Sequence record: SRR31156797_4827
DNA length: 55,169 nt
Strand: one strand, 5' to 3'
Shown one piece after another: positions 26,595 to 28,304 of the stretch (positions are counted from its first letter, which is position 1; each line of letters opens with the position of its first letter). Below the pieces are notes generated by a model that saw only the letters and a program-made list of their open reading frames with translations, was not told the origin of the DNA and made no database searches. Both the position numbers and the translations under genes were made by a program.

Positions 26595-28304
26595 ATGAAA
26601 CAGTCAAAATGTTTGATTCCGACATTGAGGGAAACCCCCAGCGATGCGGAGACGTTAAGTCATCAACTGTTAGTTAGGGCAGGGTATATTCGACAAGTGG
26701 CGGCAGGCATCTATGTCTACTTGCCATTAGCTCAAAGGGTGTTAGAAAAGATCAAACGGGTCATTCGTGAGGAGCTGGCAGAAATCGATGCTGTGGAGAT
26801 GGCGATGCCTTCTTTGCTTCCGTATGAACCATGGAAGGAGTCTGGACGGGCCTCATTGTATGGTGAGTCTTTGTATCGGTTGACAGATCGAAACGAACGA
26901 GAGATCGTTTTAGGGCCCACTCACGAAGAGCCGTTCACGACATTGATCAAAAACGAGATCACGTCTTATAAGCGGCTGCCTTTGAGCTTATATCAGATCC
27001 AAACGAAATATCGGGACGAACAGCGGCCGCGTTTTGGATTGATTCGCAGCCGTGAATTTATCATGCAAGATGGCTATTCTTTTCACGCCGATGAAGCCAG
27101 CTTAGATCAAACCTATAATCGCTACGAAATGGCTTACCATGCCATATTGAAACGCTGTGGGATCGAGTATCGGGCAGTGGTCGGGGATAATGGCTTGATG
27201 GGTGGCCGAGATTCAAAAGAGTTTTTGGCATTGTCTGGAATCGGCGAAGAGCTGATCTGTTATTCGACTGAAAGCGACTATGTCGCCAATTGGAAACTAG
27301 CAACTAGTCAGTATATCGCTAAAAAATCTCATGAGACCTACTTAGAGTTACAAAAAGTCGTTCATAAAGAATCATTATCGTTAGAGGAACTGGCGAAAAC
27401 ACACGATACGGATTTGCAAAAAATCGTTCAAGTATTTTTGCTGCTCGTTGACGAGCAAGTCATTATGGTATTACTTCGAGGTGATCACAGTCTCAATGAA
27501 ACAAAAATCAAGCATTTTTTAGCGGCTGATCAAGTGAAGGTCCTGACTGCTGAAGAAGCCGAGTCCTATCTGACCAGTGACACACAACTTCGCAGCCCCA
27601 TTGAGCTTGCTGATTCGATCCAATTGTATGCGGATCAGCATGTCCAAGATATGGCGAATCTGATCGTCCCAGCGGCAGAAAAACAGAGCTATTTTCTCAA
27701 TGCAAATGTAGGCCGTGATTTTCAACCACTAGCCTTTGCCGATTTTCGCTTGGTTCAAGAAGGCGATCCTTCCCCAGATGGAAAAGGAACCTTAACCTTT
27801 ACGCGAGGAATCGAAGTTGGGCATATCTTCAAGTTAGGAACCAAGTACAGCGAGGCCCAAGAAGCGACGGTTGTCGATGAAAATGGCGATGAACAACCAA
27901 TCATCATGGGCTGTTATGGTCTGGGCGTTTCTCGGCTGCTTTCAACAATCGTCGAACAATACGGCAATGAGTTTGGGATCGATTGGCCCCAAGAAATTGC
28001 CCCATTTGATGTGCATATCATCCAAACGTCGATTGAAGATAGCTATCAAAATGCCTTAAGTGAAGAAGTAGAAGAAATGATGAACCAAGTCGGCTATCAA
28101 GTATTGGTGGATGACCGCAATGAACGTGCAGGGGTCAAATTTGCAGATGCCGATTTGATTGGTTGTCCGATTCGCTTGACCATCGGTAAAAAAGCCGTAG
28201 AAGGCATCGTGGAGATCAAAATCAAGCATACTGGCGCAACCGTTGAAGTGAGGAAAGAAGAAGTCGCTTCGACCTTGACGATTTTATTAGCCAACCAAGA
28301 ATAA
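26595..28304 (+). CDS. proS: Proline--tRNA ligase (bacterial type, degenerate-looking INS editing domain)
   Basis: [29 protein letters not shown]; canonical rseP-proS-polC position; aaggag RBS before ATG 26595. Confidence 0.95.

Follow-up and report, generated by a model that had tools for sequence, protein, structure and literature searches.

Editing by the INS domain of prolyl-tRNA synthetase (ProRS) is a textbook fidelity checkpoint and has been studied mainly through engineered mutants, e.g., K279A. The K279A form of E. coli ProRS serves as the standard editing-defective enzyme in excerpts of two sources (PMC3973320; bioRxiv 10.1101/2020.09.11.293571). Excerpts of the latter name H369 as the gatekeeper histidine, treat the lysine, the histidine, and GXXXP as the ProXp-ala and INS signature residues, and describe L266 and H369 as pocket residues that tune specificity (bioRxiv 10.1101/2020.09.11.293571). 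According to parts of another account, the equivalent lysine binds A76 and directs the aminoacyl end into the site, and INS catalysis is largely substrate-assisted, via the A76 2'-OH and the backbone (PMC10164551). The archaeal/eukaryote-type (E-type) ProRS of B. thuringiensis is adapted to bacterial tRNAPro, and both ProRS enzymes of this organism are functional in vivo, as stated in sections of PMC11229370. Here, we analyzed a 55,169-nt stretch of DNA (the window) encoding a ProRS that, judged from its sequence, appears to be a natural bacterial enzyme with a dismantled editing pocket, in which the domain itself and the synthetic site are preserved.

The gene proS1 (26595..28304, + strand) encodes a bacterial (P-type) ProRS (ProRS1) of 569 amino acids plus stop. 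Its ATG at 26595 is preceded by a GGAG ribosome-binding site and its stop codon lies at 28302-28304, confirming the open frame that an earlier sequence-only reading of this DNA had described. ProRS1 belongs to the P-type family; it matched NCBIfam NF006625 at 728 bits (cut-off 558) and TIGR00409 at 638.4 bits (cut-off 306.7), full-length and above the curated cut-offs, and an INS of ~180 amino acids is inserted between motifs 2 and 3. The gene occupies the rseP-proS-polC slot, with rseP (25258..26526, + strand; TIGR00054, 280.7 bits) ending 68 nt upstream and polC (28413..32762, + strand; NF001688, 2211 bits) downstream. A terminator-like site was located at 25117-25145, ahead of rseP, and an imperfect hairpin with a T-run 3' of proS1 (28323..28353, + strand) looked terminator-like by eye and was absent from the terminator scan. 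No T-box was found upstream of proS1, which is separated from rseP by just 68 nt; the T-box at 17235-17428 of the window is that of argS. Eighteen RNA-library runs, in which DNA carry-over is possible, each contained at least 90% of the words sampled from the stretch. The four runs examined were assembled contigs, one of which, near-identical and 43.8 kb in length, may be DNA, and an RNA-library contig bounded at 25223 and 28311 hinted weakly at a joint rseP-proS unit. The genes rseP and proS1 probably share one transcription unit.

The INS domain of ProRS1 (residues 224-402; 27264..27800, + strand) is full length and its fold is kept, and its hallmark residues are lost. On the + strand, H257 and K258 (CAT AAA, 27363..27368) replace T257 and P258, Q279 (CAA, 27429..27431) replaces the conserved lysine of the INS superfamily (E. 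coli K279), and QLRSP331-335 (CAA CTT CGC AGC CCC, 27585..27599) replaces the GxxGP (GXXXP) loop, of which P335 alone is kept. Likewise, PAA359-361 (27669..27677) replaces GAN, and Y366 (TAT, 27690..27692) replaces the gatekeeper histidine (E. coli H369). ProRS1 keeps 1/7 INS hallmarks, and the conserved lysine (C. crescentus ProXp-ala K45), the GXXXP loop, and the gatekeeper histidine expected of a competent editing domain are all missing. In a phmmer comparison with E. faecalis ProRS (2j3l_A), residues 1-565 aligned with 1-565 free of gaps (E 3.8e-246), and the residues opposite were T257 P258, K279, GSIGP331-335, GAN359-361, and H366. Alignments with 5znj and 5ucm (P. aeruginosa) placed T-P, K, G..GP, GAN, and H at the same positions, and in the alignment with E. 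coli K-12 ProRS, H257, Q279, D347, and Y366 of the window corresponded to T257, K279, D350, and H369. The numbers 331-335 follow E. faecalis because the E. coli G...P loop aligns at 336-340. T257 and K279 were conserved in 21/21 canonical Enterococcaceae and 7/7 distant ProRS; among the cluster representatives, 127/137 carried K at 279 and 118/137 carried H at the gatekeeper position. Misalignment as the origin of the lost residues was rejected, since the 2j3l alignment is gap-free and MAFFT alignments of 75, 16, 37, and 3 sequences agree with it.

The codons confirmed each residue that the sequence-only reading had reported at positions 257, 258, 279, 331-335, 359-361, and 366. Its remembered comparison with E. 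faecalis ProRS was also borne out, with canonical residues opposite each substitution; a proper alignment did not return Lys, Gly, or His to the catalytic positions, and the signature lysine of the superfamily, the glycine of GXXXP, and the gatekeeper histidine are gone. Its central claim, that proS at its canonical locus is intact apart from an INS that would be editing-dead, was supported by every sequence test run.

All synthetic motifs that had been called intact in the same reading were present on the + strand, i.e., GPTHEE (residues 107-112; 26913..26930), the motif 2 region (residues 139-155; 27009..27059) with YRDE at 139-142, REF at 153-155, and R140, R144, and R153, GHIFKLG (residues 409-415; 27819..27839), and the motif 3 region GCYGLGVSR (residues 439-447; 27909..27935). 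ProRS1 carried 15/15 class II and proline/ATP-site hallmarks, and its anticodon-binding domain (residues 471-569; 28005..28301, + strand) matched PF03129 at 58.1 bits. We defined universal invariants as the 89 positions identical in 21 canonical Enterococcaceae and 7 distant-bacteria ProRS. Seven of the 11 universal INS invariants were altered in the window (E234K, T257H, K279Q, V290I, G331Q, G359P, and H366Y), compared with 1/70 in the catalytic core (L427V) and 0/8 in the anticodon domain. The excess in INS gave a Fisher p of 3.7e-7, a value that overstates independence because the altered positions come from a single lineage. When the comparison was limited to the 21 canonical Enterococcaceae, 31/73 INS positions had changed, along with 27/177 in the catalytic core and 3/47 in the anticodon domain. 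It is the editing domain specifically that has lost these residues.

The INS of the window was recognized by Pfam PF04073 above the cut-off (47.3 bits, residues 258-372); scores were 45.9-67.9 bits in five other genomes of genus g1 and 92-102 bits for the listed canonical INS domains. In the AF2 model, INS blocks had pLDDT values of 73-95, mostly >83, with a YbaK-like fold, and the top Foldseek match of the model was 2j3l (TM 0.80). Selection was assessed using pairwise Nei-Gojobori estimates of dN/dS. The medians in the window's genus (7 pairs, dS <1.5) were 0.058 for the gene, 0.037 for the catalytic core, and 0.096 for INS, and the INS/catalytic dN ratio was 2.5, compared with 2.2, 2.9, and 2.5 in canonical-INS genera, indicating that INS is constrained and not drifting. 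This per-domain check had been proposed from the sequence, and the INS value of ~0.1, i.e., purifying selection, is consistent with the accompanying suggestion that the retained full-length domain may have another role. Whole-ProRS1 dN/dS in the genus (0.058) was approximately twofold higher than that in genera without ProRS2 (0.026-0.035).

The INS-loss pattern was common to 8/8 species of the genus (E. casseliflavus/gallinarum group); K279 was retained in one member. ProRS1 identity across the eight genomes was 74-100%, and ProRS1 dN/dS across the eight species was 0.03-0.075. INS-hallmark loss is therefore old and common to the entire genus. Assembly error, artefact, or pseudogene was rejected because the frame is open, the nearest genome (G001) encodes a 99.8-100% identical protein, and 8/8 species of the genus are alike. 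No report of a degenerate INS in Enterococcus ProRS was found in full-text literature searches outside subscription journals.

G001 contains 87% of the sampled 31-mers of the window and was used as a stand-in for the window's own genome. By tblastn, neither ProRS2 nor YbaK was found within the 55,169 nt of the window; statements on both rest on G001 and the genus genomes. G001 encodes ProRS2, a 477-amino-acid E-type enzyme (TIGR00408, 532.6 bits; cut-off 437) with a ProRS-C_1 domain, and an E-type ProRS2 was found in 8/8 genus genomes; a second ProRS was one of the three ways out offered by the sequence-only reading and is the one that these genomes bear out. ProRS2 identity in the genus was 91-100% and its dN/dS was 0.014-0.10 (9 pairs; ≤0.05 in 8/9). 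Of the two ProRS enzymes in the genus, ProRS2 is the more conserved. A proline T-box leader (101.8 bits) lies immediately upstream of the ProRS2 gene in G001, and we take CCU, which follows GAA of the specifier loop, to be its specifier, placing it by T-box architecture. This T-box scored above the gathering threshold at 2/3 genus loci searched (G001 and G003), and none was found at the G007 locus. As to the proposed trans-editing factor, G001 encodes a YbaK/EbsC Cys-tRNAPro deacylase, and a ProXp-ala candidate was not found. In a PF04073 search of G001, only INS and YbaK matched; since no further editing-domain protein was found, there is no candidate for ProXp-ala in this genome.

We compared ProRS1 across the family. 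Scoring covered 74 of 103 matches, including all 53 from ProRS2-bearing genera; genera g13 and g4 were sampled (8/26 and 8/19, respectively), and the 29 left-out sequences were 61-64% identical to the query, like those sampled. Because 74/74 scored genes lie immediately downstream of rseP, they are positional orthologues. In the six genera without ProRS2, 21/21 sampled ProRS1 had the full sets of 7 INS and 15 synthetic hallmarks; among the 53 ProRS1 of the ten ProRS2-bearing genera, 11 kept all INS hallmarks and 16 kept all synthetic hallmarks. ProRS1 was not found in 25/25 genomes of g3. In Enterococcaceae genera with ProRS2, ProRS1 decays variously or disappears. Coexistence does not force decay, as seen in g12 and g14 (near-canonical; all INS hallmarks in 4/5 and all synthetic hallmarks in 5/5), in g23 (three genomes carrying both enzymes, with top-scoring P-type genes), and in B. 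thuringiensis, for which both enzymes have been reported to function (PMC11229370). The genera without ProRS2 group together on the ProRS1 tree; therefore, the association between ProRS2 and decay may reflect few independent events.

At the order level, an E-type ProRS was present in 97/301 sampled genomes. TIGR00409 E-values were 1e-224 to 1e-230 for canonical Enterococcaceae without the E-type enzyme, compared with 8e-192 for G001 and 6e-189 for G007. In family f8, 4/26 genomes with an E-type ProRS fell to 1e-147 to 1e-160, and such a drop was shown by 0/9 well-assembled genomes without it. In family f4, an E-type ProRS was present in 40/40 genomes, and TIGR00409 gave E ~1e-21 or no match; we read these matches as cross-hits to the E-type enzyme.

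Taken together, we consider it probable that ProRS1 is a predicted active, non-editing isozyme in which INS persists to support the synthetic site structurally, its loss of hallmarks having been enabled by ProRS2. We infer that deacylase activity was lost, that aminoacylation persists, that INS acts structurally, and that redundancy was what caused the loss. ProRS1 would most likely still bind tRNAPro and charge proline, and its INS would most likely be without post-transfer hydrolysis of Ala-tRNAPro; a T-box-regulated E-type ProRS2 in the lineage may have made this loss tolerable. The P-type editing domain lies above the synthetic site, which is pre-organized by domain motions; therefore, INS may be needed for charging even with a dead pocket.

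Another reading, which we regard as unlikely, is that the P-type ProRS linked to rseP turned into a freed scaffold after the arrival of ProRS2, maintained by purifying selection for something beyond canonical charging and editing, with a non-hydrolytic function of INS. The genera would then differ in what they kept: the window's genus only the synthetic site, g17 parts of INS, and g6 and g10 neither. In g17, the INS lysine, loop, and GAN are kept and the synthetic motifs are eroded. The orthologues of g6 and g10 in the rseP-polC slot carry 1-6/15 synthetic and 0-1/7 INS hallmarks in an open frame of 520-547 amino acids, and in g6 dN/dS was ~0.08 (11 pairs); therefore, a non-canonical function exists in the family. 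If the scaffold reading were true, the casseliflavus/gallinarum-group enterococci would live without any Ala-tRNAPro proofreading.

The same near-hallmark-free, open, and in g6 constrained orthologues bear on a further possibility, namely that ProRS1 has ceased to work as a synthetase in vivo, that ProRS2 does nearly all of the charging, and that ProRS1 is an early pseudo-synthetase kept for another function, e.g., tRNAPro binding, regulation, or a role tied to rseP. Its faster evolution and the loss of the synthetic site in sister genera suggest that ProRS1 here might already charge little, ProRS2 is far more conserved and under T-box control, and an E-type ProRS alone suffices in g3 and family f4. 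However, the window keeps 15/15 synthetic hallmarks, 69/70 catalytic invariants, and 8/8 anticodon-domain invariants, and catalytic-core dN/dS is 0.037 among species merely 74-77% identical. An active site this well conserved is difficult to account for in the absence of catalysis, and we consider this possibility quite unlikely.

The replacements in INS are themselves conserved: Y366, S334, K234, W233, and Q313 were each fixed in 8/8 species and Q279 in 7/8, in a genus ~25% diverged, with INS dN/dS of ~0.1. Many surface residues (R295, D297, N301, K304, and K306) were invariant in the 37-sequence alignment, H-to-Y at 366 recurred in other ProRS2-bearing genera, and L266 and H369 are known specificity tuners in the consulted portion of bioRxiv 10.1101/2020.09.11.293571. 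A pocket remodelled to bind or hydrolyse another substrate, or to hold on to the acceptor end of the tRNA with no hydrolysis, would be consistent with these observations. However, we rate it as very unlikely: the lysine that positions the CCA end and the loop glycines are gone, signatures kept by every characterized member of the superfamily in that portion of the same source (bioRxiv 10.1101/2020.09.11.293571). In addition, a candidate substrate was indicated by none of the results, and fixed replacements are equally expected under structural constraint following a single ancestral loss. It is highly improbable that INS still edits Ala-tRNAPro usefully with a neighbouring basic residue in place of the lost lysine, since K279A alone gives an editing-defective enzyme (excerpts of PMC3973320), six more signature positions are changed here, and a Tyr substituted for the gatekeeper His should occupy the small pocket for alanine, although K276 and K258 are near position 279, the window retains P335 and D347 (D350 in E. 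coli), INS is under purifying selection, and some residual hydrolysis may persist because the proposed INS mechanism, as given in part of PMC10164551, is largely substrate-assisted through the A76 2'-OH and backbone groups.

A predicted active and non-editing ProRS1 makes three questions testable: whether the structural role of INS is separable from hydrolysis, whether Ala editing is needed by bacterial E-type ProRSs, and what level of Pro-to-Ala mistranslation is tolerable to a free-living Firmicute. The hosts are culturable, clinically encountered enterococci of the E. casseliflavus/gallinarum group, and the nearest genome has no recognisable Ala-tRNAPro deacylase. The family provides a series from canonical through INS-dead, synthetic-site-dead, and degenerate yet constrained to lost, and thereby a comparative system for the displacement of an essential enzyme by an isozyme of non-homologous type. 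This is relevant to inhibitors directed at ProRS, for which these species offer two highly dissimilar targets.

Among known systems, E. faecalis ProRS (2j3l/2j3m) resembles ProRS1 in its length class, core-INS-anticodon layout, and slot, at 63% identity. However, it has T257-P258, K279, G331, G334, G359, N361, and H366, all of which ProRS1 lacks, and ProRS2 was found in 0/2 genomes of the E. faecalis-like genus, whereas the genome background of the window has a second ProRS. In yeast ProRS, the appended INS-like domain is said to have been called 'defunct', without post-transfer editing, by SternJohn and colleagues in PNAS in 2007; that enzyme is eukaryotic and E-type with an N-terminal INS-like domain, whereas the window encodes a bacterial INS inserted in the catalytic domain. 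The ProRSs of C. crescentus and R. palustris (2i4l) resemble the window in that cis-editing of Ala-tRNAPro is absent, but their INS is deleted or truncated and a free-standing ProXp-ala compensates, according to sections of PMC3973320; in contrast, the INS of the window is full length and G001 has no ProXp-ala candidate. In Sulfolobaceae LeuRS-I and ThrRS-L, one copy of a doubled synthetase likewise has disrupted or poor editing, as reported in parts of PMC9437257. However, LeuRS-I cannot aminoacylate, while the synthetic site of ProRS1 looks intact, and LeuRS-I and ThrRS-L belong to another synthetase class and lineage; moreover, ProRS1 and ProRS2 are of different evolutionary types and not recent duplicates. 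In B. thuringiensis, a P-type ProRS1 and an E-type ProRS2 likewise coexist in one Firmicute, and the searched parts of that account mention neither P-type editing-site decay, nor Enterococcus, nor a T-box (PMC11229370). Unlike in that account, the P-type partner here is without INS hallmarks, and related genera are without the synthetic site or the gene. ProRS1 with its loss of INS hallmarks thus extends the known cases of editing-defective synthetases and of two-ProRS genomes.

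The open frame of proS spans 26562..28304 on the + strand, and translation from ATG 26595 gives a 569-aa protein, a start that fits both the GGAG ribosome-binding site and all homologues. The product, the bacterial P-type proline-tRNA synthetase ProRS1, scored 728 bits against the bacterial-type proline--tRNA ligase model NF006625 (cut-off 558) and 638 bits against TIGR00409 (cut-off 306.7), both far over the cut-off. Pfam assigned a class II core, an HGTP anticodon-binding domain and tRNA_edit; the latter, which is the INS editing domain (residues 224-402), scored 47.3 bits. 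With uppS, cdsA and rseP on its 5' side and polC on its 3' side, proS occupies the usual Firmicute slot and starts 68 nt after the end of rseP. A terminator-like hairpin precedes rseP (25117-25145), and an imperfect hairpin with a T-run, read by eye, follows proS (28323-28353). RNA-library contigs span proS, which alone is no proof of transcription. In one ant-metatranscriptome run, a single assembled contig (25223-28311) has both ends in the intergenic regions flanking rseP-proS, a weak hint that the two genes form one transcription unit; cdsA and polC lie on separate contigs of that run. Strain differences were seen at 26570-26577, just 5' of the proS ribosome-binding site, in three RNA-library runs.

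No T-box was found ahead of proS, and the sole T-box within the window precedes argS. This leader (17235-17428, +; 101.7 bits) lies directly 5' of argS (17453-19246, +; TIGR00456, 487 bits on residues 40-597), with an ornithine carbamoyltransferase gene (16123-17154) just ahead of it. The listed argS ORF begins at TTG and the model matches from residue 40, suggesting that the true start may be further in. The only tRNA gene in the window is tRNA-Arg(CCT) at 51652-51725 (-).

The sequence-only reading had claimed an open proS frame with intact synthetic motifs, a set of altered INS residues and a gap-free alignment to E. faecalis ProRS, and each of these claims was borne out. The frame is open, the INS residues are all present in the DNA where it placed them, and phmmer aligned residues 1-565 to 2j3l_A without a gap (E 3.8e-246). 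In this alignment, the T257 P258 of E. faecalis 2j3l is H257 K258 in the window (27363), K279 is Q279 (27429), GSIGP is QLRSP at 331-335 (27585), GAN is PAA at 359-361 and H366 is Y366 (27690); the canonical Lys/Gly/His positions are thus occupied by Q279, Q331, P359 and Y366. The solved ProRSs 5znj and P. aeruginosa 5ucm carry TP, K, G..GP, GAN and H at the corresponding positions (phmmer). In literature numbering, H257, Q279, D347 and Y366 of the window align with T257, K279, D350 and H369 of E. coli K-12 ProRS. T257, K279, G331, P335, G359 and H366 were kept in 7/7 distant bacterial ProRSs (from Streptococcus, Desulfovibrio, Peptoniphilaceae, Dialister, two Campylobacterota and Gardnerella; a second Gardnerella enzyme was also aligned). 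On a fixed hallmark list, the window retains 1/7 in INS and 15/15 in the synthetic site.

The changes are concentrated in INS. Among 89 universal invariants, i.e., positions identical in 21 canonical Enterococcaceae and the 7 distant ProRSs, the window has changed 7 of the 11 in INS (E234K, T257H, K279Q, V290I, G331Q, G359P and H366Y), one of the 70 in the catalytic core (L427V) and none of the eight in the anticodon-binding domain. The bias gives a Fisher p of 3.7e-7, although the positions are not independent events because all come from one lineage. The INS invariants still present are G296, P335, D347 and P394. Measured against the 21 canonical Enterococcaceae alone, 31/73 invariants are changed in INS, 27/177 in the catalytic domain (mostly conservatively) and 3/47 in the anticodon domain.

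In published work, the standard editing-defective ProRS is E. coli K279A (PMC3973320; bioRxiv 10.1101/2020.09.11.293571), A76 is contacted by the conserved Lys, which guides the aminoacyl end to the pocket (PMC10164551), and H369 is the pocket gatekeeper, with K, H and GXXXP forming the group signature (bioRxiv 10.1101/2020.09.11.293571). As Lys, His and GXXXP are gone together with T257, G359 and N361, we infer that ProRS1 has lost post-transfer editing of Ala-tRNAPro. All synthetic and anticodon-domain hallmarks are kept under strong constraint, which argues that ProRS1 would still charge tRNAPro.

The nearest genome (G001) shares 87% of the window's sampled 31-mers and encodes the same ProRS1 protein. 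In the window's GTDB genus (g1), the gene is at the same place in 8/8 species (identity 74-100%). All eight have Y366 and have lost the loop glycines and TP; Q279 is found in seven and K in the remaining one. The synthetic motifs are intact, with GQIFKLG in one species. Named records of this ProRS1 come from E. innesii (99%), E. casseliflavus (97%) and E. gallinarum (77%), and further records from Ca. E. testudinis and three other Enterococcus species. Whole-gene dN/dS of proS in g1 was 0.03-0.075 (pairwise Nei-Gojobori, 7 pairs with finite dS). The proposed per-domain comparison, run within g1, gave medians of 0.096 for INS and 0.037 for the catalytic core (7 pairs, dS < 1.5), both constrained. 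Non-synonymous change in INS was 2.5 times that in the core, the same as in genera with a canonical INS (2.2, 2.9 and 2.5). The shared g1 pattern and this ratio indicate that the signature residues were lost on the g1 stem and that INS has been under ordinary constraint ever since. An AlphaFold2 model of ProRS1 had a mean pLDDT of 78 (INS blocks 73-95, mostly > 83), and its best Foldseek match was 2j3l (TM 0.80). The INS Pfam score was 51.3 bits in G001 and 45.9-67.9 bits in five other g1 genomes; canonical INS domains scored 92-102 bits among the matches listed.

A second ProRS and a YbaK-type or ProXp-ala factor had been suggested as backup. An archaeal/eukaryote-type (E-type) enzyme, ProRS2, was indeed found in G001 and in 8/8 g1 genomes (identity 91-100%), the genomes covered being those of relatives and not the window's own. 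In G001 it is a 477-aa ORF on a different contig from proS, scoring 532.6 bits on TIGR00408 (cut-off 437), with a ProRS-C_1 domain and a C-terminal Tyr. Among solved structures, ProRS2 is most closely related to 1h4q, the T. thermophilus ProRS. ProRS2 dN/dS was 0.014-0.10, and <=0.05 in 8/9 pairs. Directly 5' of ProRS2 in G001 lies a T-box leader (101.8 bits, gathering score 93), in whose alignment the specifier-loop GAA has CCU next to it on the 3' side, with A after that. By the usual architecture of T-box leaders, the specifier would be this CCU, a proline codon. The T-box was present ahead of ProRS2 at 2/3 g1 loci searched. The YbaK factor is likewise present in G001 (the nearest genome, not the window's own), as a free-standing YbaK/EbsC Cys-tRNAPro deacylase (TIGR00011, 187.7 bits; cut-off 153.25). 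ProXp-ala did not turn up: a search of G001 for further tRNA_edit proteins, at E up to 1, returned none besides INS and YbaK/EbsC, and there is therefore no ProXp-ala candidate in that genome. Just these two PF04073 matches (INS and YbaK/EbsC) occur in 7/8 g1 genomes, and the remaining one has two more free-standing copies. The extra copies in that genome (G003; loci L138 and L143) are mutually similar paralogues; one is a 166-aa ORF, and the listed ORF of the second is 116 aa long, with the family match falling inside a 145-aa open frame.

Across 134 Enterococcaceae genomes, ProRS2 occurs in 82 (12/17 genera) and ProRS1 in 103. We scored 74 ProRS1 genes: every one of the 53 found in ProRS2-bearing genera, plus 21 that represent six genera without ProRS2. 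All 74 lie just 3' of rseP. The complete hallmark set (7 INS and 15 synthetic) is kept in 21/21 genes from genera without ProRS2; where ProRS2 is present, 11/53 keep all INS hallmarks and 16/53 all synthetic ones. FastTree grouped the ProRS1 sequences of genera lacking ProRS2 into one cluster with short branches; the remaining sequences have long branches. The mode of decay varies between genera. The window's genus has lost the INS hallmarks and kept the synthetic site; g17 has eroded synthetic motifs (GSAYEG, KYRND, RSHEF, GRMIKVG) with K279, G..GP and GAN mostly kept; g5, g7, g8 and g11 are mixed; g6 and g10 have lost almost all hallmarks; g12 and g14 are near-canonical; and g3 yielded no ProRS1 in 25/25 genomes.

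In g6 and g10 (L099-L111), the orthologues in the same rseP-[proS]-polC slot are intact 520-547 aa ORFs with 31-37% identity to the window's protein, 1-6/15 synthetic and 0-1/7 INS hallmarks; with dN/dS ~0.08 in g6 (11 pairs), they look like a pseudo-synthetase under purifying selection. The g17 genes (L086-L096) show the inverse of the window's pattern, with K279 in 10/11, the G..GP loop in 11/11, GAN mostly kept and dN/dS ~0.095; they may encode a paralogue that serves only in editing, or one that binds tRNA. One genome, G107, is the only one of 26 in a genus (g13) otherwise without ProRS2 to carry an E-type ProRS; its ProRS1 is fully canonical, and the E-type enzyme has only 48% identity to Enterococcaceae ProRS2, which suggests a separate acquisition.

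At the level of the order, 97/301 genomes in the sample carry an E-type ProRS. In one family it is present in 40/40 genomes and no P-type enzyme was found, the P-type model matching at only E ~1e-21 or not at all; we read these matches as probable cross-hits to the E-type enzyme because the protein P0002 itself reaches 114.6 bits on TIGR00409. It seems that the E-type enzyme has widely displaced the P-type one in this order. On the P-type model, canonical Enterococcaceae gave E 1e-224 to 1e-230, G001 8e-192 and another genome, G007, 6e-189. In family f8, the P-type match weakens to E 1e-147 to 1e-160 in 4/26 genomes with the E-type enzyme, and none of nine well-assembled genomes without it shows such a drop. 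There are counter-examples: three genomes of genus g23 have both enzymes with top-scoring P-type genes, and in B. thuringiensis both enzymes of the pair are reported functional (PMC11229370).

We also searched a library of 1.8 billion proteins clustered at 50% identity and examined the nearest 150 representatives. A full INS was present in 137, with 7/7 hallmarks in 85 and 6/7 in 29; seventeen had <=4, by an automatic MAFFT alignment in which a few may be misaligned, and these may include the Enterococcaceae forms themselves. The synthetic site was 15/15 in four of the 17 and 14/15 in five. These counts suggest that natural INS decay beside an intact synthetic site is uncommon but probably recurrent. 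The four proteins with 15/15 (P0063, P0068, P0134 and P0144; 35-42% identity to the window's ProRS, 0-4/7 INS hallmarks by automatic alignment) are candidate natural INS-dead ProRSs.

Taken as a whole, we moderately favor the reading that ProRS1 would keep charging, would have lost Ala-tRNAPro editing and would retain INS for a mechanical reason, the last being the best-supported explanation for its retention. That ProRS1 is a pseudo-synthetase in the making is unlikely; near-complete hallmark loss is seen in some ProRS2-bearing genera, and the window's synthetic site is complete. A remodelled INS pocket with a new role appears less likely again. Residual editing by INS is the most doubtful; D347 and P335 are in place, and the Lys and His are gone. 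The full-text literature, with subscription journals outside coverage, yielded no earlier account of INS degeneration in Enterococcus ProRS or in another bacterial full-length P-type ProRS. The general phenomena behind this case are already known. Yeast ProRS reportedly carries a 'defunct' INS-like domain. Two ProRS types are described in one Bacillus genome (PMC11229370), an INS-less ProRS is paired with ProXp-ala (PMC3973320), and duplicated synthetases have disrupted editing domains (PMC9437257).
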